IMG/VR virus record: IMGVR_UViG_2713896908_000007
Origin: a virus
Lineage: Duplodnaviria > Heunggongvirae > Uroviricota > Caudoviricetes
Direction: 5' to 3' (one strand)
DNA: 64,000 nucleotides
In this document: positions 4,200 through 57,011 of the stretch, one piece after another
How positions within the stretch are numbered: position 1 is the first letter of the stretch
How the letters are laid out: every line of letters begins with the position of its first letter
The notes under the pieces: model-generated
Seen by the model: the letters and a program-made list of their open reading frames with translations, nothing else
The model's database searches: none
What the model was told of the DNA's origin: nothing
Translations under genes and position numbers: made by a program

Positions 4200-4484
4200 T
4201 AACACTCCACCCTGGTGTGCTGAATGTCAGATATAATCGGCATACTCAAATCACTCCTAACGATATGAGTCATCACCAGAAAATCAGGATTAATGCGCCG
4301 GACTCTTCCCGGCTGTCACACCGAATCGCCAGGATGGTGAGTCCCTGTATCCGCTATCCCTCCAACGGTGACTTGCACATTCCGGCTACCTGGTTTGTTG
4401 CCTGAGCTAGGGGAAAAGGTAACCCCTTTAACGTCACCAGACCGCTAACGACGCATGTGCCAGACGCCGTGTTACAACCAAATG

Positions 4485-4560
4485 TGGTGACCCCTACCGG
4501 ACTTGAACCGGTGACCGTGCGATTATGAGTCGCCAGCTCTAACCACTGAGCTAAAGGGCC
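4485..4560 (-). tRNA. tRNA with anticodon CAU (Ile2-lysidine type or Met)
   Basis: 76-nt cloverleaf GGCCCTT...CTCATAA...GGTTCAAGTCC...CCA; 7-bp acceptor stem; T-loop consensus; encoded CCA. Confidence 0.85.
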
Positions 4561-4563
4561 GGA

Positions 4564-4671
4564 TTACTGTTTCCTAAGTGCTTCAATGGCGCTAACAACG
4601 CCGCCTACAACTATGGCAACAATGATAATGAGAACAATTGGATACTTGTCAGCAAAATCCCAGAAGCCCAT
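4564..4671 (-). CDS. 35-aa hydrophobic single-pass membrane peptide
   Basis: MGFWDFADKYPIVLIIIVAIVVGGVVSAIEALRKQ; start overlaps the upstream stop (TGATG); below the ORF-track size cutoff. Confidence 0.35.
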   Translation of the reverse strand: MGFWDFADKYPIVLIIIVAIVVGGVVSAIEALRKQ

Positions 4672-4835
4672 CACTGATCCTTCGAAGCTGTTTTAAATAT
4701 CGGCCATACCAATGTTACAGCCACTGCCACCAACGCCCCGTCCGATAAAACTGACAGGATTGTGCTGGTGAAATCCACCAGCACGGACAGCAAGAGAAAA
4801 CCAATGGCGATTGCGATACGTGCCTTGCTTGCCAT
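4671..4835 (-). CDS. 54-aa hydrophobic membrane peptide
   Basis: MASKARIAIAIGFLLLSVLVDFTSTILSVLSDGALVAVAVTLVWPIFKTASKDQ; ATG overlaps the TerB-like stop (TAATG). Confidence 0.35.
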   Translation of the reverse strand: MASKARIAIAIGFLLLSVLVDFTSTILSVLSDGALVAVAVTLVWPIFKTASKDQ

Positions 4836-5269
4836 TACAGATAATCTTCCACACGAAGACCTAAACGACGGCCTACTTCTTCCAGTACTTTGTGTTCTGC
4901 TGGCTCGATTTCACCGTCCGCTTCTGCAATCGTCAGCATGTTAACGAATACTTCTTCCGCTTCTTTTGGGTCGTTTTTGATATCTTCAATTTCGCGAAGG
5001 ATATTCATGCGACCAACACGGAAGCCAGCTTCCAGTTGCTCGGTAAAGCGGGTAATTGTTGCGGTAATTTCGTTACCAAAATGACTAAGACGCGGATTAG
5101 AGCGGATAAGCTGATCAAGTTTCGCTGTTTCTTCTTTTTTGATTTCACCATCAGCGGCAGACACCAACAAACAGCCACCGATAATGGCCTCCATCAGATC
5201 GCGATTCTCAACTTTTTTCAGCTCTACTTTTGCAGAAGCGACTTTCTTGCCGAACAATTTACCGAACAT
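4835..5269 (-). CDS. TerB-like (tellurite-resistance domain) protein
   Basis: 144 aa with paired acidic DGE motifs (AADGEIKKEE, AEADGEIEPAEH) typical of the TerB fold; first gene of a coupled operon. Confidence 0.55.
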   Translation of the reverse strand: MFGKLFGKKVASAKVELKKVENRDLMEAIIGGCLLVSAADGEIKKEETAKLDQLIRSNPRLSHFGNEITATITRFTEQLEAGFRVGRMNILREIEDIKNDPKEAEEVFVNMLTIAEADGEIEPAEHKVLEEVGRRLGLRVEDYL

Positions 5270-5531
5270 TGGTTATCCCTCAATAAAAGTGACATATTTA
5301 TTAGATTGCGGTGCCGGGTGCCTCCCGGTGACGTTAACCAGTTAACAATTAACGCCGGAATGTTTAATCATCAAGGAGGATTGTTTTAACTGTTCCGCGT
5401 GCGCTTAGCCGAATTCACCGCAATGGTAAGAGCACTTGGCTGGCTGGGCGGCGATGACGCCTGTACGCATTTGGTGATCCGGTTCTGCTTCCGGCATTCG
5501 CTTAATTAGCCAAATACTCTTAACGTTGCGC

Positions 5532-5618
5532 TGGTGGAGAGTAATGGAATCGAACCATCATCGCTTGCGCAATGGGACGGTTTTCAAGACCGCTTGAGCG
5601 CCATACTCCCTACTCTCC
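5532..5618 (-). tRNA. tRNA-Ser (anticodon UGA), type II with long variable arm
   Basis: 87 nt; anticodon loop CTTGAAA; variable arm ATTGC-GCAA-GCGAT hairpin; T-loop TTCGATT; encoded CCA. Confidence 0.7.
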
Positions 5619-5859
5619 AATGATTGTGGTGGTCGGTGCTGATCTCCGACTGCGCCTCTTTTTTTCATAGCCCATAAGGCCGGTCAGTGCGCTTGATGAC
5701 TGAGGCATCGATATTTACTACGCCGCCTCGTTGCCATAGGGCGGACTTGCGCGCCAGCAACGCGCATTCACCACAACGGAAAGAGCATTCACGTCTCGCA
5801 TCGCGGGAAAAAGCCCACGGTAGAGAGTCGAACTCTACAAATGCTCTTACCTGTTGTGC

Positions 5860-5992
5860 TGGTGCCGGTTAACGGATTCGAACCGCTGACCTCTGGCCTA
5901 ACATCGAATCGTTGTCATTTGACCAGCAAGGCTGTCTACCGAAGTAGAAACGATGCTTTGGCTCTCGTGCTCTCCCACTGAGCTAAACCGGC
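5860..5992 (-). tRNA. atypical 133-nt tRNA-like gene: tRNA 5' and 3' portions separated by about 57 nt of inserted sequence
   Basis: 5' GCCGGTT-TA-GCTC-AGTGGGA-GAGC (acceptor and D arm); 3' AGCGG-TTCGAAT-CCGTT-AACCGGC-A-CCA; acceptor halves pair; no canonical anticodon arm found. Confidence 0.35.
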
Positions 5993-5994
5993 AT

Positions 5995-6070
5995 TGGCGA
6001 TGGTGGGTGGATTCGAACCACCGACCAGTTAGTTAACAGCCAACTGCTCTAACCGCTGAGCTACACCATC
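5995..6070 (-). tRNA. tRNA-Asn (anticodon GUU)
   Basis: 76-nt cloverleaf GATGGTG...CTGTTAA...GGTTCGAATCC...CACCATC-G-CCA. Confidence 0.85.
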
Positions 6071-6730
6071 ACTTGCCGGGTACGTCTCCGGCGAGGGCTT
6101 CCACCTCCGTATGCTTTTCGGCGCACCGCGCCCTGGCTGCAATTCGGTAACAGGGGATGCATAACCCTGGCTTCCAGCGTGATTAGCGCTTTCAGCATGA
6201 CGGGATATACCCGTAAATTCGTGGAACTGTACCCAAAGTGCTGTTAAGCACCGCTGTTACGCTGAAAAGAAGACGCAACAGGAAAGGACGCTGACCAACA
6301 GATGGCCCCTTCTCGTTCATCTGGTTAATCACACCAGCGCCCTTACCTGTTGTGCCTCCCCGTTCCCTAATACACAGACGGGGACACTCTGCGGTCGATT
6401 TTTTGACGGGGGACGACTCATACCCCGTGGCGTCTGGCTTCTTAGGCCGCAGCCATCATCAGATCATCGTTTGCATTTACTTTAATGGTCAGTTTCTAAA
6501 CCGCCGCAAAGTCGCTAACCATGACGAAAACCCTGAAAAAACGCCCACCCGAAGATGGGCAAACAGGATGTAAGCTCGTTACGCATTTCGGTATTGCCAC
6601 TTAGGCGTATGGTCAACCTGGCAACTCGGCGTCATGAGGGGGAAGGAGTCACTACCCCGCCATACTTGCCGCCGCGCCTGTCGCGGCTAACAGCTAAATC
6701 GCTCTATAAATCACGATTCATTGAAACCAT

Positions 6731-6758
6731 ATTACACTAATAAATTTATTAGAGCAAT
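6731..6758. promoter_or_regulatory. pair of overlapping, inverted P1 C1-repressor-type operators
   Basis: AAATTTATTAGAGCAAT (17/17 to the remembered consensus ATTGCTCTAATAAATTT, reverse orientation) overlapping ATTACACTAATAAATTT (15/17). Confidence 0.6.
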
Positions 6759-9700
6759 ATAGCAATAACGTCATGAGCTACACCACGAGTGTTCCCCTTA
6801 CAAGACACAGAACGTCTGGCAAAAAGAGGTTCCACTCTGAAGCCACTGTCTTGGTAAAGCTCCCTGATGTTTGGCGCACCACTATTAGTAATGAGGATCT
6901 TTGCACCTCGGCGATGAGCATCCATTAGCAGAGATACCAGGCGTTTTTGCTCTTCAAACTTAAAGTCATGACCGGAATAGTTTGTAAACCCCTCTGTATT
7001 GGGGAGCGGTTCATACGGAGGATCGCAAAAGATGACATCTCCTTCTCCGGCAGCTTCAATCACCGCTGAAAAATCACCACATACAAACTCAGAACGCCCT
7101 TCAGCACCAAGGAAGGCTTCCATCTCCTGTAATGGGAAATACGGAGTTTTATACTTCCCATAACCAACATTAAACTCACCGGCCTGGTTGTAACGCGTCA
7201 ATCCGTTAAAACAATGTCGGTTCAGGAACAAAAACGCTGCTGCACGATGTAAATCATCATAGGCTTGTTTGTTAAACGCATTCCGTACTGCCAGGTATCC
7301 TTCCTGTGTGTTGTAGTCCTGGAAAAACCGATGCGCCAGAGTGATAAGTGAATGACCCTCACGTTGCAGAGTCCTGTAAAAGTTAATCAGGTCAGCATTC
7401 ACATCATTTAGCAGATTTTCTTGATATCCGGCATTTATGAAGACAGCTCCGCCACCAACGAAAGGCTCGATCAGGCGCTTTCCGTCAGGTAAATGCCTAA
7501 AGATTTGTTCAAGAACACCAAATTTTCCGCCGACCCATTTAAATATGGGACGGTCAAATTCTGCCGTTAGCTTAACTCTCCGTTCTGTTGCTTCATGATT
7601 TTTTGCCTGCTGATATGCAGCCTTAATAATCCGCTCACCAATCCATCGCATTACTGGTATCGCCATGCTATTGCCGATCGCTTTGTAACGCGGTCCGTCA
7701 GCTGCAAGCATCGCGGCCTCTTCTTCGCTTAAATCTGGATAGTGATTGCGAAGGTATGCCAGTTCATCTGAAGTAACTTTTTTACGCTTTTCCGTCGGGA
7801 TCAACGTATGCCCATCAGGAAAACCTTGCAGTCTTTCACATTCGACAGGGGTAAGACGGCGGACAGCTACTGCTGCGTTTCCTACGTCATAGCAAACGGC
7901 TGTTGTATTTTTGGCCATTAAAGATGGTGAAGTATTCTTAGTTGCAGCATGTTGTGTACCGCTCATACGCTCAGGAAAAGCCAATGTAACAAGATGCTCA
8001 TGGCTTTCTTGCTCACGTGCCCGCAATGTACCATGCCCTTCTGACCAAAAACCTGCTCCTGTGCTGCTAAAAACTGCAAGGTCAGTGGCATCTTTAAAGT
8101 CTCTCGCCTTTACTGTCGATGCGGTTTCATCGCCAATATATTCCCCAAATGCCGCCATCCTGAAAGCGTTTACGGCTTTCGTCGATTTCATACCGGGGGT
8201 AATGTCAGCGTGTAGGCATGGATTTAGGCTTTCGCCACTGATTGCAGCGCCATTTGCAATAATGGCGGAAGCGATTTCCTTCTTTTTTCGGCTCGGCGCA
8301 ATATTCCGGCGCACGCCTTCGAACTCAAAAAGTACCGTTGCGGGATCGAGGTCTGTTCGAGCACTTGCGACAACAAACACGCGTCGGCGTCGTTGTGCCA
8401 CTCCGAAGTATTGGGCATCAAGGATTCTCCAGGCCACCTTTCGCTGCGGTCCATAAATACAACCACACTGCGGCCACTTTGGAGCATGGCAACCGGTTTT
8501 GCCATCCCACCGCCAGAACGCGTTACTTTTTCCTGATTCAGGTCGATCACCTGGTTCAAATGGCGCATCTTCTCCAGCCAATCCGGCAAGGAAACATCCG
8601 AAGGCGTTATCTGCCGATGACAAGACTCCTGGGACATTTTCCCAGACGATAACGGCTGGTTTGAGAAATGACTCAGCCCGTTTGTCGTCAATTGCATTTG
8701 CAAGCTCCACATACTTTAAAGTTAGCGCGCCACGCTCATCATCAAGCCCACCACGTAATCCCGCGATACTGAATGCCTGACAGTTATGGACCACCGCACC
8801 ATTGAGAATATAGGAATGATCACCTTCGACTTCTATGTTGTATACAGTATCTAGGCCTACCGATTTAAACTCTTTGACTGTTCGTAAAAGCATTCCATGA
8901 GCCAATCTTGATTTACGTGACAATTTCTGCGGGCAGATTGTTACCTGATAATAATTCCGTTGATTTACCACGCGATCCTCGATCACTTTTTTGGGCTCAA
9001 CTTCAATAAAGCTGACCGAAGAAACATAACCACAAGTCTGTGACACCCCCGCAACGCCCCAAGCAAGCGCAGGACTAACACTATTAATTCTAAATCCCGC
9101 TTTACCACTTGGTGTCCCATCAGTATCAAGATAGCCTTGTAAAAACACATGACGCAATGGATGCGACATCACCCATGCAGGGATACGCTTAGCATGGCTT
9201 AACTCGCCAAAATGTTCATTAAGCCAATTGGCATAACACGTATCATTCAAGGTTACTTTGATGCTCCCTCGGATTTCTCTTGCCACGGAAAATATGTTTT
9301 CTGGTATGCGACAATGAAACTTTCTCAATTTCTGGCAATTTATGCCAAAAACAACCGCCTTCTTAGATTTACCTCTCCATCTCCTAATATATCCATCGCC
9401 AACATAAGCGCCCGCAAGATACATAGCCTGTTCTTCAGACAAGAACCGAGAACAAATATCTGGAGATGCAATATTGAAATTAGTTAGAGCGCACCATTGA
9501 TATCCTGGCATATCACATGCTGCTCGCCATTCCGGTTCAGACAACAACTCTCTCTTAAAATATGTGCCATTTTTCCGGGTGTTTTGGGCTTTCCACCGAA
9601 CAGCCAGGAAGGGATGGTCATTGGTTGTTCTTATACCTAAAGGCTGCCCAACGGCATTAAGTAACCCCGTATTAGCTATTTTTGAACCAACTCTTTTTAC

Positions 9701-45771: not shown

Positions 45772-46920
45772 TTATCCAAACCAATTTTCTAGAACATTTT
45801 CAAATTTATGGGTAACTTGCCACCATAAATAGTTCTCTAATACATATTTCTTTCCGTTATTTGCAATTTGTTCTAATTTTTCGGAGTGTAATGTTTCATA
45901 TATATCACTAGCTAAACTTTCTGGCAACATTGGTTCATTTATATGAAATCCTGTATGGTTATTTTTTACAAATTCAACCATTCCACCTCGAGTGCTAACT
46001 AAAACGGGTTTTCCTGCCCCCATAGCTTCTATAGCAACCATGCAGAACGGTTCTTGAAACTGAGATGGGATTACAACTAGATCGGCTATAGGATAGTAAC
46101 GGTACATATCATCTGGTTTTACCCCGCCAACAAGATGACAACGCGAACCAATAGTTCCAGCAAGTTCCCTTACTTGTTTTTGATATGCAGCTTTTTCTCC
46201 TTTATCTTTATTATTGTAGTCACCAACAACTACAAGTTCTATATTGTCACATGATTTTATCAATTTTTTAAACGCTTGTAATAGTAAAACAGTCCCTTTT
46301 TCAGGGGAGATCCTTCCCGCATAAAAGATAACTTTTTTCTCAGAGGGAATGCCTAAATCTTGTTTTGTTAGCGGGGGTAGCCCTTTATCTAGATTGTGTG
46401 GTTCTGTACCATTAGGAACTATACAAATTTCAGCGTCAGGAAGATGTTTTTCATAAAAATCCTTTAAATACTGACTTGGAACAAGCATTTTCACATTGCT
46501 ATCTAGCCCTTTCGGTGTAAAGGCATTATGCATATGCATTATCATTTTTGCGTCAGGAGCTTTCTCTCTAATTTGACGATAAAGTTTCATGCTGTTATGA
46601 ACAATAATAATGCTATCGTTTGTGATATTGAAATCTTTAGCAATGTTTAACACTCGTTGTGAATATGGAATAGGATCTATTCTGCTCCATTTTTGAAATA
46701 TCCGTTTATAAAGACGGCTAAACCCTATTCTATGGATAGAGCATCGCTCATTAACAATATCTTTTTCTGAGAAACCATCCTCTCGAATGCATGCTATACG
46801 ATTTGGTATTCTTGTTCTCTTTGCGACTTGATATATCCAAGTTTCAACAGCTGCTGCGCCACGAGGTGGTATTGAAAATATTGGTGTAACTGTAAATATT
46901 AATTTGTCAATCATGAGCAA
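45772..46920 (-). CDS. GT-B fold glycosyltransferase (GT4-like)
   Basis: 382 aa; C-terminal EPFCMVAIEAMGAGKPVL fits the GT4 E-x7-E region; AT-rich; overlaps the upstream acetyltransferase gene. Confidence 0.7.
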   Translation of the reverse strand: MLMIDKLIFTVTPIFSIPPRGAAAVETWIYQVAKRTRIPNRIACIREDGFSEKDIVNERCSIHRIGFSRLYKRIFQKWSRIDPIPYSQRVLNIAKDFNITNDSIIIVHNSMKLYRQIREKAPDAKMIMHMHNAFTPKGLDSNVKMLVPSQYLKDFYEKHLPDAEICIVPNGTEPHNLDKGLPPLTKQDLGIPSEKKVIFYAGRISPEKGTVLLLQAFKKLIKSCDNIELVVVGDYNNKDKGEKAAYQKQVRELAGTIGSRCHLVGGVKPDDMYRYYPIADLVVIPSQFQEPFCMVAIEAMGAGKPVLVSTRGGMVEFVKNNHTGFHINEPMLPESLASDIYETLHSEKLEQIANNGKKYVLENYLWWQVTHKFENVLENWFG

Positions 46921-47458
46921 CTATCCTCTTATAATCTTTTTCCTTTAAATGTTTTTTTGGGGTTGCGGGAGAGCCCGCATACATTGTATTAGCAGGAACA
47001 TCAGTATTTACAACGCTATTTGCAGCTATAACACTATTGTCTCCTATTTTTACACCTGGTAGCACAGTTGTATTTGCCCCAATCCAAACATTACGGCCTA
47101 TTTTTATTGGAGCGCAAATTGTTTCTTTGGGACGTTTGCTTGGTGTTAGTGGATGCGTGACAGTTGTTAATACAACGTTGGGGCCAATGGCAGAGTTACA
47201 TCCAATATCTATTGTTTTTGCATCGAGAAAAACACAATTTGCGTTAATGAAGACCTTTTTATCAATAATTATATTGCCATTCTCAAAATAAAATGGAGCT
47301 GTTATTGTTGAGTCTTCACTTACTTTAACTCCTGTTTTTTTTAATGTGATTAATTTTTTTCTTTTTGAGATCAAGGTATAATTAAATATATGTCTTGCTT
47401 TCTTTGCTTTCTTTTTTTGAAAAATTATATAGAAATAATATGTTAGCAAATCAAACAT
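46907..47458 (-). CDS. hexapeptide-repeat acetyltransferase
   Basis: Tandem left-handed beta-helix hexapeptides (IGRNVWIGANTTV, IGDNSVIAANSVV); AT-rich. Confidence 0.7.
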   Translation of the reverse strand: MFDLLTYYFYIIFQKKKAKKARHIFNYTLISKRKKLITLKKTGVKVSEDSTITAPFYFENGNIIIDKKVFINANCVFLDAKTIDIGCNSAIGPNVVLTTVTHPLTPSKRPKETICAPIKIGRNVWIGANTTVLPGVKIGDNSVIAANSVVNTDVPANTMYAGSPATPKKHLKEKDYKRIVAHD

Positions 47459-47482
47459 TGTTGTTTTACTTCCATTTAAAAT

Positions 47483-47812
47483 TTAACTATCAAATGTGGC
47501 TCCTATTTCTCGCATTTTGTTAAGTATGATGTTTATTTCATTGCTACCGAGAGAAGTTTGGGCAGCTATGAAAAAAAGTATGTGCAATGACATAGATCTG
47601 TTATTTTCTTTGTTTATATATTTTCTCCACTGGCTATCGCTGCTGACCCCGGCTAGTTCTGCCATTTGATTCCCTGTATACCCAAGCGTTTCTTTGAATT
47701 GACGCAAATCTTGTGATTTGGGGGGGGTGTAGTTGTTTATTAACCTCATATTAAACCCATTATTGGTAAGCTTTCGTTGGTGTAATGGTAGCACCAATGG
47801 GGCTGCTGTCAA
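47483..47812 (-). CDS. small HTH-like protein at the head of the GT/acetyltransferase cassette
   Basis: ORF with a probable HTH (LGYTGNQMAELAGVSSDSQW); start uncertain (track TTG, or internal ATG at 47749). Confidence 0.35.
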   Translation of the reverse strand: MTAAPLVLPLHQRKLTNNGFNMRLINNYTPPKSQDLRQFKETLGYTGNQMAELAGVSSDSQWRKYINKENNRSMSLHILFFIAAQTSLGSNEINIILNKMREIGATFDS

Positions 47813-47889: not shown

Positions 47890-47910
47890 GAGAAGTTACT
47901 TTGCATACCA
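47890..47910 (+). promoter_or_regulatory. candidate late promoter upstream of lydA
   Basis: GAGAAGTTACTTTGCATACCA; the AGTTACTTTGCATA core recurs upstream of other late genes. Confidence 0.35.
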
Positions 47911-47939
47911 TTACCTCCTGACAACGTAGGAGGGAACTT

Positions 47940-49299: not shown

Positions 49300-51219
49300 A
49301 TGGAACAGTTCAATATCAATAAAGGGGTGACGATCAAACCTGGGCTTGACGTGCTTCCCCCGCCAGTGACTGATGATGAATATCGCGCATTAATGGCCGG
49401 TGAGGACCGCTATCTGATGACGGAATCCAACACCCTGGAGGAAATCGAGGCTACGTTCTTCTATGACAAGCCGATCCACTGGTGTGCTACGGATTTACTG
49501 GAGGCGATTAGTTCTACTCGTTTGCAGTTACACCGGACCATGCAGGCATTTGTCCGGGCATTGAACCAGAAGCTGAATGGTACCGGAATCTCTGCGGGGA
49601 GTGATAAAACGGGGGATGTGGCCCAGAGCGGCGCGCGCGCGATCGGCGGCGCTGAAATTGGTCGGGCACGTAACGTTAACGGGCTGCCGGTCCTGCCAGC
49701 CATTATTCCGCTCAGTGATGGTCAGACTATCAGCATTTTGTTTCATAGCCCGACAGCGGAAAACCGGATCACCAATAGCGATACGCTGGTTGCTTTCCAG
49801 TTCTTACTGAATAAAAAAGACGTTACTCACACCGTTGCTCCGATGAGTGGACGTGATATGACGCTGGCGCAGGTCACCATGAAACTTGCCAACCTTGCAG
49901 AGAAAAACTCGGCAAAATTCCAGCGTGCGCAGAAGAAGAAAAAAGCCCTGGTTGATGAAATAACCCAACTACAGGCTGACAGTGACCAGAAAGAGGATGC
50001 CATGAGCGACCTCGCGGATCAGGTGGCAGCGGTAGAAGGCCAGAAGGCAGATCTGGAGCAGAAAATTAACGCGGTTGCTTCGGAAGCGGATTCTCTTTAT
50101 CAAGAAAATGAGCGTTTGCAGGCGGAGATTGAGCAGCTCAATCGCACTGGTGGGCGCGATACCATTGCTCCAACGGGGATGACTGGTGGGCACTCTCGCG
50201 CGCTGACGGATCGCCTTGCCAGTATCAAAAATCGTATGCATATGGACGGGGAAGCGACGCTCAGTAATGGTGCATCAATGAAGCAATTCATTGGGGACGG
50301 CAAAGGGTATGTCCAGTTAACCGATCCGGATGGCAGCGTGTACATGATCAAGGCTAAATCCATACAGGGTGTGGACATGGCAGATGCGATCGGCAAGCTG
50401 TTTAAAGCCTATAAAGCGGGTAACGTATCGGAATATCTGGTCCAACCAGAAGAGCCTAAACCGGAAAACGTCGAACCTGAACCAGCGGAAGATACCGGTA
50501 GCTCTTCGCCTGAACCAGAAGTCTCTGTAGGTGCATATCGATATGCCCTGCAAATGCGTCCGGCGGCCCCAGGCGCGATACCTGAAGGTAACAAAGCAAT
50601 TCTGCCGTGCCCTGATGAAGGTGACCCGTATTATGAATATGCGCGCTACGGCATTGTTACTTACGATACCCCGCTTTCTGATCAGCAAATGAGTGAGTAC
50701 GACCTGAAGTTATTGCCTCGCGAGGATTCTTTCGACTTCCTGGCGAAGACACTTACTAATGGTCCGTTTGGCAAATATGCACAAAAAGCTCTGGAGCTGG
50801 CCACCAGCTCACCAGACGAGTTCCGCGTAATGCTGAAAACTCAGTTTCAAAAAACTTTCCCCAATATTGCGTTTCCGGGGGGCGCAGGCACCGAGAAAAT
50901 GGTGCAGAGCATGATCAATGCATTGCAGGCCGAAGTCGGTGAGATTACTCAACCAGAATCGGCCCCGGAACAGCATGATGAAAAGGTTAGCGAAGCAGAT
51001 GCAGAGGCTAATAAAGCCATTGAATATCTCAATAACGTGATGGATATGCAAAGCACTGACATGGCGGAGATCCGCAACGCCAGGGGCAATGTCAGGGAAG
51101 CGATTGCTGCCCTTCAGGCTGCCGGACGTTTTGATGAAAACGAAGAGCTGGTTAACGGCGCAGCTCGCCACCTGGCTGATCTGCTGGTAGCAATCCAGAA
51201 AGCGGGAGGAGCGGCATGA
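49300..51219 (+). CDS. darA: antirestriction capsid protein DarA
   Basis: 639 aa, same length and operon position as remembered P1 DarA. Confidence 0.65.
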   Translation: MEQFNINKGVTIKPGLDVLPPPVTDDEYRALMAGEDRYLMTESNTLEEIEATFFYDKPIHWCATDLLEAISSTRLQLHRTMQAFVRALNQKLNGTGISAGSDKTGDVAQSGARAIGGAEIGRARNVNGLPVLPAIIPLSDGQTISILFHSPTAENRITNSDTLVAFQFLLNKKDVTHTVAPMSGRDMTLAQVTMKLANLAEKNSAKFQRAQKKKKALVDEITQLQADSDQKEDAMSDLADQVAAVEGQKADLEQKINAVASEADSLYQENERLQAEIEQLNRTGGRDTIAPTGMTGGHSRALTDRLASIKNRMHMDGEATLSNGASMKQFIGDGKGYVQLTDPDGSVYMIKAKSIQGVDMADAIGKLFKAYKAGNVSEYLVQPEEPKPENVEPEPAEDTGSSSPEPEVSVGAYRYALQMRPAAPGAIPEGNKAILPCPDEGDPYYEYARYGIVTYDTPLSDQQMSEYDLKLLPREDSFDFLAKTLTNGPFGKYAQKALELATSSPDEFRVMLKTQFQKTFPNIAFPGGAGTEKMVQSMINALQAEVGEITQPESAPEQHDEKVSEADAEANKAIEYLNNVMDMQSTDMAEIRNARGNVREAIAALQAAGRFDENEELVNGAARHLADLLVAIQKAGGAA

Positions 51220-51602
51220 CACTATCAGCTATTGAGTTAATGGACCTCAGCGATAAGTTGGATGCTCTGATGTCCAAAGCTGCTACCGCGAGTGGCATGG
51301 AGTTGCTGGATATCAGCGATGAAATTGACCAGATCATGCAACAGATGGGGTACGGCGCGTCCGGCGGCGGTAGTGGCGAGGAAAAACAACCTTCAGTACA
51401 TGATGGTGTGCCAAAACTGGTTGCTGATTTCCTGGCTGATAAATTCGTCGATCAGAGCACCGATGCATTTATCGGCACCTTGCAGGACTTGAGTCAATAT
51501 GTTGGCACATACATCGACCTGGACCAGGTTAAACAGCACACGGCGGCATGGATAGCCGCCAACATTAAAGAGGCTTCAGGTGTTCGCAGCAACTCTACAT
51601 GA
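51216..51602 (+). CDS. DdrA-like small acidic protein
   Basis: 128-aa ORF coupled to darA. Confidence 0.45.
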   Translation: MTLSAIELMDLSDKLDALMSKAATASGMELLDISDEIDQIMQQMGYGASGGGSGEEKQPSVHDGVPKLVADFLADKFVDQSTDAFIGTLQDLSQYVGTYIDLDQVKQHTAAWIAANIKEASGVRSNST

Positions 51603-51663
51603 GCTGTAGTTTTCGAAGATTCTCACAAGTTCATTTCGCGTAGGTATTTATTTAACCATTAAA

Positions 51664-51701
51664 GCCGAATGCGGCGGGCACACCACATTCGGCAATTTTT
51701 T
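51664..51701. terminator. rho-independent terminator between convergent ddrA-like gene and gldA
   Basis: GCCGAATG ... CATTCGGC hairpin followed by AATTTTTT. Confidence 0.65.
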
Positions 51702-51735
51702 GAAAACTATCAATGAATTAAATAATCAGAGGGGC

Positions 51736-52839
51736 TTATTCCCACTCTTGCAGGAAACGCTGACCGTACTGGTCGGCTACCAGCAGTGCAGCATAAACCT
51801 GATCTGGCGTTGCGCCGCCAGGCATGTTGTGGATGGTTTCACCTTCTGCACATGCCGCTTCTGCGACAATCCGCATTTTCGCCGGGATATCTTCTTTAAT
51901 ATCCAGTTGTGCCAGGGTAATTGGCAGGCCGACAGCATGGCACAGCGCAGCTACGGTTTCGATTTCTTCAACTGGTGCGTTTTCCAGAACCAGTTGCGTC
52001 AGCGTACCGAATGCCACTTTCTCACCGTGATAATAGTGATGCGCATCCGGAATGGCCGTCAGGCCATTGTGCACCGCGTGCGCCGCCGCCAGGCCGCCGC
52101 TTTCAAAGCCCACGCCGCTCAAATAGGTGTTAGCTTCAATCACACGTTCCAGCGCCGGAGTCACCACATGCTGTTCAGCGGCAAGCATCGCTTTTTCGCC
52201 TTCTTCCAGCAGGGTGTTGTAGCACAGTTCAGCCAGAGCCAGTGCTGCCTGAGTACATTTACCGCCCGCCATCGTGGTTGCGCCGCTGCGGGAACAGGCA
52301 CGTGCTTCAAACCAGGTTGCCAACGCATCGCCAATACCCGCCGCTAACAGACGTGCAGGTGCGCCAGCAACAATTTTGGTATCCACAATGACGCGTTCCG
52401 GGTTGTTTGGCAGCATCAGATAACGTTCAAACTCACCATCATCGGTGTAGATAACGGAAAGGGCGCTGCAAGGTGCGTCGGTTGAGGCAATGGTTGGGGC
52501 AACTGCAACAGGAACGCCCATAAAGTGTGCCAGTGCTTTGGCTGTATCGAGGGTTTTACCTCCGCCGATTCCCAGAATTGCGCTACACTGAGCATTCTCT
52601 GCAATACCCCGCAGACGATCGATTTCATTTTGCGAACATTCACCGCCGAACGGGGCAATTTCTACCTCTATTCCAGCATCTTTAAAACTTTTCTCAATAT
52701 TAGTTTGAGCAAAACCTAACACAAATTTGTCACCTACCACCAACCAATGTTCTGCCAGCGGTTTCAGGTATTCACCCAGGCGATTAATGACATCTGCGCC
52801 TTGGATGTATTTACCCGGTGATTGAATGATGCGGTCCAT
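51736..52839 (-). CDS. gldA: glycerol dehydrogenase (iron-containing ADH family), host-type metabolic gene
   Basis: 367 aa; first ~190 residues match remembered E. coli GldA almost exactly, C-terminal half more diverged; own AAGGAG RBS. Confidence 0.9.
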
Positions 52840-52986
52840 AATTGCTCCTTTAGAGATGAGTTATGCTAAATGTTTTGTTATTCCCGGATGACCTTCTGTA
52901 TATATCTTAAGTCAACATTATAAGTTGACGCCAATATTCCGTAGAAGAGATGTTACTTCGCGAGCAGTATGACTCCATAGGTTTCT

Positions 52987-53005
52987 GAGACGTTACTTTG
53001 CATAT
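52987..53005 (+). promoter_or_regulatory. candidate late promoter
   Basis: GAGACGTTACTTTGCATAT, sharing the GTTACTTTGCATA core with the lydA upstream motif. Confidence 0.3.
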
Positions 53006-53142
53006 GATATTGCTGAGGCAAATACATTCAATGCCGCATTTTTGTGAGATTTTAAGCCAATCTACATCACCATTAGGTAAGAGTATCTTTTTTTGGTGGT
53101 GATGGCGCAATGTATCAGTGGACAGCATAAGGTGTAACAGGG

Positions 53143-54831
53143 ATGTGTTTGAACGATCATACAGTTATGGCCACCAGCAGCGGCTACATCGGTGTGGCAC
53201 CGTATACCCGCTTGCTATTACATCAGGCATCCGGCATCAAAGATATTATTCACCTGATCAGGCTGCTTTCCCGTACAGATCCCCAGGATGAACAGCTTGT
53301 TCAAGTGCTTGCGCATTTTGTCCGAATGCCTGTTGCCGACGTGAAAAAATGGTGCCGATTATTCGGTATCAGCAATTCGTTACTTCGCGGATTGTTAAAT
53401 CACGCATCCTCCCTTGGGCGCGACGGATTTGATGAGATAGCGCAGGCGATAAAAAACGGAGATATGCCACCAGCTATTGACTGGTTTTCCATTCGCCCAA
53501 CCAGGGTGAAAGCATTCCTTAGTGCGGCGCAATCAGCATCACCATTGGCAGAAATGGTTCAGAGGTTGTCGCTCATATTCACAGATCATACCGCGTTCGG
53601 TGATCTGGCTCTGGACGAGATGAAAGAAGCCTCCATTCAGTGGGCCGCTCAACAAAATGAGGTTAACTCAGACTTCTTGCCAGCATTCAGGAAGGCCGTT
53701 AGTAAAGCGGATGATGCCCGTGGAATTCTGAAGGCATTTAAGGCATTGCAAAGTCGGGTTAATAAACATGTCGGTGATATCGATGGGGTAACGGCGGAAG
53801 GCAGGGATATCCTTAAAGAGCACGGCATAACGCCAGAGTTTATTGATGAGATCAGGACGGATATGCAGCGTGAGGTCGTATCGTCCCTGCAAATTGTAGC
53901 CAGAGCGTTGGCGGATGCTAATCCGAAGAGTGCGGCCATTGTTAACCGGGTTATTGGTGATATTGAAGCATCGGAGGGCATGGGGGCGCTGAAACTCTTC
54001 CTTTCGCGAGCGTTTAATCCTAACGGCAATATTCTCCCTGGCATTATTGGTGAGGCTAAAAGGTATGTCAGTGAAGAAGAACTTGAGCAGCTTGACCAAC
54101 TACTTAAGCGATTCTCATATAACCCGCAGACACGCTGGCAAATGAATCAGCGAAGTATGGGTTCGGTCCACGAGAAAGTGTTATCTGCCATGAACAGTGC
54201 GATCGCAAACTCATCCGTATCTGAAGAAAAAGCTCTTGAGTGGGCCGACTCTTTTATCACGGAAGAAGTGGAAGAAGCCCGCGCTGGACAGAATGGTGGG
54301 ATAGACCTGCGCAAGGAACTTGCTGATATTTATCGCCTGACCGGCGGTAAAATTTCGACCCTATCAAAGATAATTCACCACCAGGGAAGGGCATATGCAA
54401 ATCTTAATGGTATTGTTGCTGTCAATTTGAACGATGAAAATGCAAGCGCACTGTGGCACGAGCTTGGTCATCATCTTGAGTACAGTAACCCTGGTCTGTT
54501 AGAGAAAGCCAGGTCATTCCTGAAGGCCAATGTTGAAGGGGATAAGCCATCTTTCGTTAATATCGGTGGGCGTGGTAAACCTGAATGGTGCTTCAGATCT
54601 CGATTGAGTAATATTTATATGGCGAAGGTATACCCGCCAGCCTCAGTGAGTAACTCCGGGAAAATTCGGCAGAAAGCACCGACTATTTCCAAAACGTCAG
54701 CAACGGAAGTATTCTCTATGGCTCTTCAGTTGTATCATGACAAAGAGGCCGCTGCCGCATCACTGATGAATGGTGACGGATTGCTGGAACTGTTATTAGG
54801 TGTGGCAAAGGAGCTAAATAATGCAGATTAA
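53143..54831 (+). CDS. large protein with C-terminal HExxH zincin-like motif
   Basis: 562 aa; WHELGHHLEYSNPG near the C-terminus; coupled to a small acidic ORF; occupies the region where P1 has ddrB. Confidence 0.45.
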   Translation: MCLNDHTVMATSSGYIGVAPYTRLLLHQASGIKDIIHLIRLLSRTDPQDEQLVQVLAHFVRMPVADVKKWCRLFGISNSLLRGLLNHASSLGRDGFDEIAQAIKNGDMPPAIDWFSIRPTRVKAFLSAAQSASPLAEMVQRLSLIFTDHTAFGDLALDEMKEASIQWAAQQNEVNSDFLPAFRKAVSKADDARGILKAFKALQSRVNKHVGDIDGVTAEGRDILKEHGITPEFIDEIRTDMQREVVSSLQIVARALADANPKSAAIVNRVIGDIEASEGMGALKLFLSRAFNPNGNILPGIIGEAKRYVSEEELEQLDQLLKRFSYNPQTRWQMNQRSMGSVHEKVLSAMNSAIANSSVSEEKALEWADSFITEEVEEARAGQNGGIDLRKELADIYRLTGGKISTLSKIIHHQGRAYANLNGIVAVNLNDENASALWHELGHHLEYSNPGLLEKARSFLKANVEGDKPSFVNIGGRGKPEWCFRSRLSNIYMAKVYPPASVSNSGKIRQKAPTISKTSATEVFSMALQLYHDKEAAAASLMNGDGLLELLLGVAKELNNAD

Positions 54832-55126
54832 AATCGCAGCGCCATTAGGCGGAGATGCAATTATCGAATTTGATGATAATGAAGAAGTTTCCGGGCGTTT
54901 AAGCATTATCTCCGGTGACATTACCGAGGACATGATCGCTGAAGCCATAGCTGGAGCAAATCCCAATAGCTATATGGGATTCGTTAACTCCCTTGATGCT
55001 CCCGCAAGCGATGTTCTCCGAACGCTGCATCTTTACGCTGGCTGGTTTGTTGATTGGCCAGCAGTAGAGGGTGGCGATGAGGACGACGATGATTTCGGTG
55101 ATAATATTAATCAGATTATATTTTAA
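54821..55126 (+). CDS. small highly acidic protein
   Basis: 101 aa, Asp/Glu-rich with EGGDEDDDDFGD; start overlaps the end of the HExxH protein gene. Confidence 0.4.
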   Translation: MQIKIAAPLGGDAIIEFDDNEEVSGRLSIISGDITEDMIAEAIAGANPNSYMGFVNSLDAPASDVLRTLHLYAGWFVDWPAVEGGDEDDDDFGDNINQIIF

Positions 55127-55285: not shown

Positions 55286-56164
55286 GTGAAAAGAATTATT
55301 CCTGATAAAAAATGGTTAAAAGAAGAAAGCAGTAAGCGACAAGTGCCATCAGAATGTCCCTATGCAAATTCATATCGATGTCCTAGATATCACGAAAGTG
55401 TTATTTTGTTCTCACAGATGCAAATGATTGATGGCATGTCATATAATAAAGAGAAGGAGTTGAAACAGTTCTGGGAGAGAACCGACCTCTCTTCTTTATG
55501 TAATGGAGAAACCCCGTTGGTCTCAAAAAATGATAAAGGCGGGATTTTCTCTATAGATAATTTCTGTCCAGAAATATCGTTTAGATATTTAGGTTACTAT
55601 GCAGACTATATGCTGAGATACATTGATGAAGATGCTCACACTATAGGGTATGGCATAGCTAAAAGAGATCAGAAAGAAAATGATTGGAAGTATGATTGGT
55701 CCGAGGTCAATGCTGTTTTCTATGAGGATTGTTACCTCTTTGAGAGAGTTAAACAATTCAATAAAGAACTTCATGATAGTTTCTTTAAAAGACTACATCC
55801 GAATATTGTAATGCAAATAAGTAGAATGGATAAGTGTTTGGACTCAAATGACCCAACCGGTGTTTTGCATGCGGCATCTAATATTCTAGAAACAATGGCT
55901 AAAGAAATATTAGATGATCCAAATGTATTAAATAAATCGTTTGGCTCTTTTTTTGAGAAGTTTAAAAAAGAGTCAAAGTTGCCGTTAGGGTTTATTAATG
56001 CAGTTAAAGATATTTATGACTTACGTAATAAAATACCTACTGCTGGTCATGGGGGGGTGGGGATGCCTGGGTTATCTTTATCTGATGCCATAATGATTGC
56101 TGCATCAACAAAGGCTATTGTAGAGATTGAGTACAGAAACATTGATGTGGCTGCTATTGATTGA
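55286..56164 (+). CDS. AT-rich orphan protein, function unknown
   Basis: 292-aa ORF with AAGGAG RBS after an AT-rich promoter region; Cys-rich N-terminus; no domain recognised. Confidence 0.45.
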   Translation: MKRIIPDKKWLKEESSKRQVPSECPYANSYRCPRYHESVILFSQMQMIDGMSYNKEKELKQFWERTDLSSLCNGETPLVSKNDKGGIFSIDNFCPEISFRYLGYYADYMLRYIDEDAHTIGYGIAKRDQKENDWKYDWSEVNAVFYEDCYLFERVKQFNKELHDSFFKRLHPNIVMQISRMDKCLDSNDPTGVLHAASNILETMAKEILDDPNVLNKSFGSFFEKFKKESKLPLGFINAVKDIYDLRNKIPTAGHGGVGMPGLSLSDAIMIAASTKAIVEIEYRNIDVAAID

Positions 56165-56228
56165 GCTAATATAGCGAGGTTCCTTTTTGTATCGTTCGAA
56201 TTATCCCCGCCTGTCGGCGGGGTATAAC

Positions 56229-57011
56229 TTAATCACTTTCTACCTCTTCCGTTGAGTTTTCCAATGCTGCGCGACACAATTTCCTGGCATTGGTTATAGC
56301 CACACTTTTTACCTCATCCGTCATTGTACAGGTAATGTACTGATCGAGTTCTTCAGCTCGGATGATGCTTTTCCCAATCATAAACTCTATTTGCCAGAGC
56401 AGATCGGCATCCATCGTCAGTATTTCAGCCTGGCCTTCTGGGCCTGCGGGGAAGCAAACATAAGACTGTTTGCCCAGGCCGATAACTCGACAACTTGCTT
56501 CAAGAATTGCACGCTTGAGGTCTGACTTTGTAACTGAAACAGGTTGATTTTCACCTGTGATTACGCCGTTGGCATGGACGTGGAAGGGCATGTAGCTTGA
56601 AATTCGCTCTACTTTCCATACGCCAGCAAGCGATCCTTCATGCAGCACAATGGGGGTAACCGCGAGTTTCATCTCACCATATAACTGCTGGCAGATAGCT
56701 GGATTGCTGAATACATCCAAAGGTTCACACTCAAACAGCGGTGCAATCTGCATGAGGTCCATCATGGTCATACCAGGGGTACGAGCAGTAATGAATCTGC
56801 GCATTCCAGTATCCATTGTGCGCCAGATAGCTACACCATGCTTTTTGCTCACTTCTTCAGTAAAGCCAAGGTGGCACATGATGGTTTTTTCGATAGCCAG
56901 ATCAGAGATAGAAACCTTTTCGCCTGGCACGCCATCATTATTGATGGTCACTTCGACACTCTGGCCATTACGTAGGCGGTATTGAATGGTTTTAGTATTT
57001 TGTGCTGTCAT
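56229..57011 (-). CDS. hypothetical protein downstream of ssb
   Basis: 260-aa ORF on the ssb strand; no domain recognised. Confidence 0.4.
   Translation of the reverse strand: MTAQNTKTIQYRLRNGQSVEVTINNDGVPGEKVSISDLAIEKTIMCHLGFTEEVSKKHGVAIWRTMDTGMRRFITARTPGMTMMDLMQIAPLFECEPLDVFSNPAICQQLYGEMKLAVTPIVLHEGSLAGVWKVERISSYMPFHVHANGVITGENQPVSVTKSDLKRAILEASCRVIGLGKQSYVCFPAGPEGQAEILTMDADLLWQIEFMIGKSIIRAEELDQYITCTMTDEVKSVAITNARKLCRAALENSTEEVESD

Follow-up and report, generated by a model that had tools for sequence, protein, structure and literature searches.

Why does the antirestriction operon of a phage-plasmid carry, on the strand opposite to its own, a bacterial gene for glycerol dehydrogenase? P1-like phage-plasmids are common in Escherichia albertii and in diarrhoeagenic E. 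coli, and have been studied mainly for their resistance, virulence and defence cargo. The question is raised by the IMG/VR virus record IMGVR_UViG_2713896908_000007 (Caudoviricetes), analysed as one stretch of 64,000 nucleotides that we call the window, in which gldA lies within the Dar antirestriction operon. We consider it likely that this gldA is insulated metabolic cargo (a moron) in a short-form Dar operon, apparently equipped with its own promoter region, a terminator and a replacement late promoter, and that it is not a component of the Dar system. We base this on the identity and integrity of the gene, its junctions, the retention of ddrB, the distribution over the lineage, the purifying selection and the sequence motifs.

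The gldA gene and the element that carries it

The window is a P1-like phage-plasmid (plasmid-prophage) of E. albertii. The region was 100% identical to the E. albertii plasmid pEA16-1_1, and it was matched with 96.7-100% identity by 14 other complete plasmids of this species, 96-103 kb in size. The flanks are 96-97% identical in DNA to phages P1 and P7, and lydA-lydB-hdf-darA-ddrA...ddrB-hxr follow the late promoter LPdar collinearly with the Dar locus of P1; from these flanks, this gene order and LPdar together the window was recognised as P1-like. It differs from the dar operon of P1 and P7 by a foreign tail of nine codons on ddrA, by a ddrB of 562 aa without the ParB-like domain, and by a cassette of 1.55 kb that holds gldA and was absent from all 19 P1-group phage records matched. 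The initial annotation had described gldA as a host-type gene lying within the Dar locus, and this was supported. The genes concerned are as follows.

51736-52839, minus strand: gldA, intact, 367 aa, nicotinamide adenine dinucleotide (NAD)-dependent glycerol / L-1,2-propanediol dehydrogenase (from the open reading frame (ORF), family models and a structure match)
47893-47911, plus strand: LPdar, late promoter of the lydA-lydB-hdf-darA-ddrA-ddrB-hxr operon, 19 nt identical to the P1 RefSeq annotation
49300-51219, plus strand: darA, 639 aa, collinear with P1 darA, about 97% identity
51216-51602, plus strand: ddrA, 128 aa, of which the last 9 codons and the stop (51575-51602) come from the cassette
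53143-54831, plus strand: ddrB, short form, 562 aa, without the ParB-like domain of P1 DdrB, with the HELGH metallopeptidase-like motif retained
54821-55126, plus strand: hxr-like gene, 101 aa, the last of the operon, collinear with P1 hxr

The gldA ORF runs uninterrupted from ATG to TAA, is preceded by a native E. coli-type ribosome binding site (RBS), AAAGGAGCAATTATG, and is convergent with the ddrA-like gene at 51216-51602, as had been proposed from the first reading of the sequence. The protein reached 749.5 bits against the NCBIfam equivalog NF047954 (bifunctional L-1,2-propanediol/glycerol dehydrogenase GldA; cutoff 700 bits) over model residues 1-365 of 365, and also matched the Pfam iron-containing alcohol dehydrogenase (Fe-ADH) family PF00465. 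The structure of E. coli GldA (5ZXL) was matched without gaps over residues 1-367 (E=1e-235). D171, H254, H271, the GGGKTLD turn and D37 all stand at the positions expected for GldA; from glycerol dehydrogenase structures we take Asp171, His254 and His271 (E. coli numbering) to be the zinc ligands and the glycine-rich GGGK to be the NAD turn, and Asp37 is likewise taken from these structures. The integrity of the ORF and the family, structure and motif matches therefore establish gldA as a real and complete gene, convergent with ddrA. Activity of its product on glycerol, dihydroxyacetone or 1,2-propanediol is predicted.

Compared with the GldA that E. coli makes from its chromosomal ptsA-fsaB-gldA operon (PDB 5ZXL, 8GOA), 351-353 of the 367 residues are identical, the length, RBS, metal ligands and NAD motif are the same, and the plasmid copy falls within the same GldA equivalog. 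The window gene differs in being plasmid- or prophage-borne, in being severed from fsaB 33 bp upstream, and in having a foreign promoter region and terminator; about ten substitutions in the N-terminal domain are private to the plasmid lineage. Public records already annotate the gene as gldA.

It had been stated that the N-terminal half is nearly identical to E. coli GldA and the C-terminal half diverged, pointing to another donor genus or a mosaic gene. The opposite was found: 12 of the 14 amino acid differences from E. coli 042 lie in residues 1-183 and two in 184-367, and 14 of the 16 differences from K-12 (5ZXL) are N-terminal. At the DNA level, gldA and its E. coli 042 counterpart are 86.2% identical over the first half of the gene and 91.5% over the remainder. 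Comparisons with Citrobacter and Salmonella gave the same gradient, indicating that the N-terminal domain of GldA evolves faster. Sliding windows of 120 nt over gldA gave no segment more than 97% identical to any sampled species; there is thus no sign of a mosaic, and this explanation was rejected.

Junctions of the cassette and the short form of ddrB

The junctions were placed by blastn against P1 and against pEA18_2, an E. albertii plasmid without gldA. The following parts were distinguished.

51575-53123, no strand assigned: gldA cassette, 1,549 bp
52840-52872, minus strand: RBS and 3' end of fsaB, 33 bp of native Escherichia sequence, about 91% identical to the E. coli, E. albertii and E. 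whittamii chromosomes
52873-53123, no strand assigned: AT-rich upstream flank of gldA, 251 bp, 38% GC, which matches other gldA cassettes only

The P1-type backbone runs to 51574 and restarts at 53123/53124, with a single C (1 nt) ambiguous at the junction. With the cassette 1,549 bp are gained, and the backbone has lost no base. As the insertion point is the penultimate codon of ddrA, DdrA now ends in ...KEASGVRSNST (128 aa), compared to ...KEAA in P1 and ...KEAV in pEA18_2 (121 aa). The original stop of ddrA has been moved, together with the 12 bp spacer and the start of ddrB, to 53124-53145; only 12 bp stand at the corresponding point in P1.

Of the cassette, only 51736-52872 (the ORF and 33 bp) derives from a chromosome: homology to Escherichia chromosomes stops exactly at 52872, and homology to Citrobacter near 52843, at the start codon. 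The downstream flank (161 bp, 40% GC) likewise has matches confined to other gldA cassettes, and for neither flank did 5,426 E. coli genomes, 80 Enterobacteriaceae gldA loci, phages or plasmid sequences other than the cassettes yield a match. An Rfam scan of the cassette gave no match at E<=1. A repeat scan of the cassette ends detected no terminal inverted repeats or target duplication, and there is no transposase ORF; with a junction ambiguity of only 1 nt, a cassette borne by a transposon or insertion sequence (IS) was rejected. A 73 aa ORF at 52907-53128 on the minus strand was rejected as coding, having no family match and frame-breaking indels in the homologous IncF sequence. A 22 nt imperfect direct repeat (16/22 identical; 51588-51609 and 53055-53076) lies near both cassette ends, probably by chance and without clear relation to the junctions.

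The initial annotation had placed gldA where P1 carries ddrB. The insert is indeed in the Dar locus, but it lies between ddrA and ddrB, and ddrB is kept at 53143-54831. The short DdrB has 96-98% amino acid identity with residues 449-995 of P1 DdrB as well as with the 562 aa ORF of pEA18_2. In pEA18_2 this ORF has the same N-terminus, begins 12 bp after ddrA and is 96.8% identical to the window ddrB. P1 DdrB (995 aa) has in common with the short form the first dozen residues and residues 449-995, and its extra segment of about 433 aa holds the ddrB-ParB domain; PF18763 matched residues 36-167 of P1 DdrB and gave no match in the 562 aa protein, so that a full-length DdrB of 995 aa with ddrB-ParB is not present in the window. 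(The two forms were compared at 53143-54831 of the window, 4395-6083 of locus L005 and 4595-7582 of locus L001.) The long-form segment is the majority state, with 445 plasmid records. The uninterrupted junction of ddrA and short ddrB without gldA was found in 21 records, from six E. albertii, four E. fergusonii and 11 E. coli, and the short form with gldA in 15 records, all from E. albertii. As the short ddrB is also present in plasmids without gldA, the deletion of the ParB domain was a separate event and gldA is a plain insertion into a short-form backbone. Gene tables derived from PGAP frequently lack a coding sequence for the short ddrB despite an intact ORF.

These data bear directly on the proposal that ddrB was replaced in a recombination which crippled the Dar system and of which gldA is the footprint. 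Seen from P1 it has some appeal, since about 1.3 kb of ddrB (residues ~13-445, with the ParB-like domain) is missing and gldA sits roughly there. Against it, an in-frame ddrB of 562 aa (N-terminus MxLND...SSGY) begins 12 bp after ddrA in the 21 plasmids of E. albertii, E. coli and E. fergusonii without gldA, relative to which the cassette is a pure insertion. Moreover, ddrB is under purifying selection in the gldA-bearing plasmids, with a ratio of nonsynonymous to synonymous substitution rates (dN/dS) of 0.09-0.15. We regard such a replacement as barely credible. The comparison with the ddrA-ddrB region of P1-like genomes, which had been suggested as a check, shows an insertion with ddrB retained. 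An annotation error that is easily made is corrected with this: the short ddrB is a genuine variant and not a remnant left by the gldA insertion.

An assembly artefact that joins plasmid and chromosome had been named as what would refute the original proposal. The same junctions were found in 15 complete circular E. albertii plasmids from independent laboratories (USA, Poland and elsewhere) and in 56 draft contigs, which excludes a misassembly, and the window allele is 12% different from the chromosomal gldA of E. albertii; the chance that an artefact is involved is practically nil. The exact gldA allele of the window was present on 35 contigs and that of a second clade (clade B) on 21, none of them longer than 103 kb. 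In all 10 of 10 further contigs ddrA-gldA-ddrB were arranged as in the window with ddrB intact, and gldA was intact in every copy seen (15 plasmids, 56 contigs). With the window included, ddrB was intact in 15/16 gldA-bearing copies examined. The darA copies on related contigs matched Pfam DarA_N and DarA_C.

Origin, distribution and selection of the gldA allele

The gldA of the window is 87.9-89.6% identical in DNA to the genes of E. coli, E. whittamii, E. albertii and other Escherichia, and 79-81% to those of Citrobacter and Salmonella. In a neighbour-joining tree it fell inside the Escherichia clade, beside the copy on plasmid pZ1323HEC0477-2 (91.8%), and it retains the 33 bp fsaB-gldA junction that is specific to Escherichia; a donor from another genus was therefore rejected. 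The BLAST analysis of gene and flanks that had been called for mapped the junctions and yielded no close donor: in DNA, the allele is 10-12% diverged from each of the sampled species of Escherichia.

In the E. albertii type strain, the chromosome carries a gldA of its own in the native setting, ptsA-fsaB-gldA-yijF. The chromosomal gldA of E. albertii is 87.9% identical to the window allele, on which account a recent capture from the host chromosome was rejected. As the chromosomal gene of the type strain is diverged from the plasmid allele, the plasmid gldA is a second copy and not a recent pick-up from the host, which corrects another annotation error that is easily made.

Between the two phage-plasmid clades, the synonymous divergence (dS) of gldA is about 0.10, compared to 0.05-0.08 for darA, 0.12-0.13 for ddrA and 0.08-0.12 for ddrB. 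The dN/dS of gldA is 0.10, with a binomial P of 3e-10 to 9e-10 against neutrality. A dS like that of the neighbours together with this low dN/dS indicates that the cassette is old in the lineage and has been kept functional: gldA has diverged together with the backbone under purifying selection. The gene was absent from the 21 short-form and about 445 long-form relatives. No exact match to a conserved 32-mer of the cassette was found in the IMG/VR and JGI metagenomes, and matches to gldA in other phages were limited to mis-binned bacterial contigs and distant Fe-ADH genes.

Related cassettes are carried by two plasmids that are not phage-like, pEA32_1 (IncF, E. albertii) and pZ1323HEC0477-2 (E. 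coli). Both have the same fsaB truncation point and the same upstream flank as the window, and pEA32_1 shares also the downstream flank and the hairpin described below, the stem of which is kept with changes. In pZ1323HEC0477-2 gldA is four codons short. Beside the cassette of pEA32_1, at about 8527-8627 of its locus L003, the ddrA stop and the 5' end of ddrB survive as a decayed stretch of about 100 bp with a broken frame. This cassette therefore descends from a P1-like element, and the remnant sequence indicates that it moved from the phage-plasmid lineage to a conjugative IncF plasmid. The flanks of pEA32_1 are 89-91% identical to those of the window, and its gldA body is E. coli-like (96.5%), with a dS to the window of 0.60. 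From this mismatch of flank and body it follows that one of the two lineages has swapped its gldA body by homologous recombination with a chromosomal allele.

Candidate transcription signals and the case for cargo

Four elements in the cassette may govern transcription of gldA and of the genes around it.

51664-51701 (hairpin at 51664-51693), no strand assigned: hairpin between the convergent ddrA and gldA, candidate bidirectional intrinsic terminator (folding energy and z-scores)
52990-53008, plus strand, toward ddrB: P1 late-promoter-like element, here LP*, with -22 box ACGTTACTT, spacer TGCA and -10 TATGAT
53004-53031, minus strand: sigma-70-like promoter candidate for gldA, TTGAAT-16 nt-TATCAT, back-to-back with the -10 of LP*
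52911-52929, minus strand: palindrome GTCAAC-N7-GTTGAC around a perfect TATAAT, candidate -10 or operator, read from the sequence

The hairpin has a folding energy of -18.1 kcal/mol (z -4.2) on the plus strand, where it is followed by AAUUUUUUG, and of -23.9 kcal/mol (z -4.7) on the minus strand, where it is followed by UUUAAUGG.

LP* has the make-up of a P1 late promoter as defined by the P1 RefSeq annotation: a 9 bp -22 box like AAGTKAYTT, a 4 nt spacer and a -10 TAnnnT. Set beside LPdar (AAGTTACTT-TGCA-TACCAT), ACGTTACTT-TGCA-TATGAT has one mismatch in the box. The longer stretch TGAGACGTTACTTTGCATATGAT (52986-53008), 135 nt before the ddrB start, agrees with TGAGAAGTTACTTTGCATACCAT of LPdar at 20/23 positions, for which 9e-5 occurrences are expected by chance in the window. 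The pattern GTNAYTT-N4-TANNNT had five matches in the 64 kb, with 0.98 expected and none of 100 shuffles reaching five; these are LP23, LPs, LPdar and LPlyz, all annotated in the P1 record, and LP*. LP* was identical in all 15 other phage-plasmid cassettes examined and is degenerate in the pEA32_1 and pZ1323HEC0477-2 copies. The -22 box occurs twice in this flank, 40 nt apart, as ATGTTACTT (52950-52958) and ACGTTACTT (52990-52998), with a usable -10 only after the second.

The hexamer enclosed by the palindrome is present in all four cassette lineages, as TATAAT or CATAAT. No C1 operator was found in the cassette, and the operator consensus recovered seven sites elsewhere in the window; control of gldA by a C1 operator was thus rejected. 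When the two phage-plasmid clades are compared, the stretch upstream of gldA (52840-53126, 287 nt) differs at 3-4 positions and the downstream flank (160 nt) at 13-15, at a dS of about 0.1 in the neighbouring genes, so that the upstream flank is about ten-fold more conserved than the downstream one.

That the promoters and the terminator are active, that gldA is expressed in lysogens and that it brings any benefit in the handling of glycerol, dihydroxyacetone or propanediol are inferences. The lysogen would gain a second, diverged GldA isozyme, and in the plasmid-prophage transcription of gldA would probably start in a sigma-70 promoter region of its own. The hairpin would part the convergent transcripts of ddrA and gldA. 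LP*, on the strand opposite gldA in its upstream flank, would most likely restart late transcription of the intact short ddrB and hxr past the terminator, judging from its likeness to the annotated late promoters.

Could GldA instead serve the lytic or anti-defence biology of the phage, through the balance of NAD and NADH or together with the Dar proteins, and not host metabolism? Its place inside an antirestriction operon, adjoining a late-promoter-like element, would fit, as would the private substitutions in the N-terminal domain. However, gldA runs against the direction of the late operon, LP* faces away from it with no late-promoter motif found on the gldA strand, and the protein is a near-canonical GldA. 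GldA and DdrB gave no match to models of defence and anti-defence proteins. In addition, the same cassette persists on IncF and other non-phage plasmids. Such a recruitment appears very improbable to us, and the opposite strand, the lack of a late-promoter motif on it and the absence from the 19 P1-group records also speak against gldA being a part of the Dar system.

As cargo, gldA has much in common with auxiliary metabolic genes, lysogenic-conversion genes and the morons of phages: one gene of host origin stands between two phage genes with a promoter region and a terminator of its own, antisense to the late operon, absent from relatives and maintained by selection, with a hairpin as terminator and promoters that are candidates only. 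As 21 sister plasmids do without it, gldA is dispensable for the phage. The proposal that it is an auxiliary gene fits the purifying selection and the conservation across the lineage. It differs from the usual moron in that its product is an oxidoreductase of central metabolism and not a toxin, a surface-modification or an immunity function, and in the apparent phage-type late promoter that would restore the downstream genes, which lies outside the usual description.

Several observations weigh against the cargo reading. The host species already has a chromosomal gldA, which leaves the benefit of a second copy unexplained. The dN of gldA is 2-3 times as high on the plasmid lineage as it is between chromosomal orthologues, and some relaxed constraint could be the cause. 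The box of LP* has ACGT in place of the AAGT core, one position off, and the sigma-70 candidate, the only consensus match in 51100-53400, does not exceed what chance would give. The low divergence of the upstream flank could stem from a recent recombination tract rather than from constraint. Finally, at least one gldA-bearing plasmid, p2RM15115, has a disrupted ddrB (an insertion of about 1.18 kb at 5963-7146 of its locus L087, holding a 227 aa ORF on the opposite strand, splits the gene and may be an IS element).

Some of these points would equally suit a neutral passenger, that is, a gldA that arrived by illegitimate recombination and hitchhikes, without function, on a successful E. albertii phage-plasmid. 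The chromosomal gldA of the host and the somewhat raised dN are in line with this, and the junctions have the look of illegitimate recombination, with 1 nt microhomology and no transposon ends. A passenger is nevertheless unlikely, given that gldA is intact in all 15 plasmids and 56 contigs, that its dN/dS is 0.10 across a dS of about 0.1 (P 3e-10 to 9e-10 against neutrality), and that the RBS and the upstream flank are conserved.

Beyond selected cargo, we can suggest, tentatively and with more doubt than confidence, a self-insulating moron. In it the terminator would be bidirectional, LP* would be a genuine Lpa-dependent late promoter, copied from or converged on LPdar, and the GldA isozyme, long kept only in E. 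albertii phage-plasmids, would give a niche benefit.

P1-like phage-plasmids were reported in 41% of UK E. albertii isolates, in host-specific clades and with Dar genes in every element (bioRxiv 10.1101/2025.09.12.675607); the survey describes E. albertii as a host of high prevalence and does not mention gldA. The elements described there, like RCS47 and SJ46, belong to the same backbone family as the window and differ in that their reported cargo consists of resistance, virulence, defence or anti-defence genes. We found no literature linking gldA or glycerol dehydrogenase to E. albertii plasmids or P1-like elements.

Two other regions of the window also depart from P1. At 45772-47812 on the minus strand, in the position of P1 cin-lydC between a tail-fibre assembly gene and LPdar, there are three ORFs of 382 aa (a lipopolysaccharide N-acetylglucosaminyltransferase in matching records), 183 aa (a hexapeptide acetyltransferase, PF00132) and 109 aa (XRE/helix-turn-helix-like). 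This module was also found in 14 P1-like plasmids of E. albertii, E. coli and E. fergusonii and may be a second cargo module, for surface modification. At 55286-57011, between hxr and ssb, ORFs of 292 aa (plus strand) and 260 aa (minus strand) replace P1 isaB-IS1-isaA; neither matched Pfam, NCBIfam-style or PADLOC models. This spot varies between sister plasmids, some of which have a Tad2-like gene close by.

Morons and auxiliary genes are a well-known kind; new here are the gene itself, the fact that it is confined to E. albertii elements and what looks like a repair of the operon. That phage-plasmids can carry metabolic genes and pass them on is clearly illustrated by this locus, in which one host-restricted lineage keeps gldA under purifying selection. 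If the late-promoter-like element works, the locus shows how an operon is repaired following the insertion of cargo. A cassette that insulates itself, if it proves true, would let a host metabolic gene lie antisense within a phage operon of essential timing while the antirestriction genes behind it are still expressed, and a benefit from the GldA isozyme, if there is one, would lie in the metabolism of glycerol, dihydroxyacetone or propanediol in the avian or human gut.

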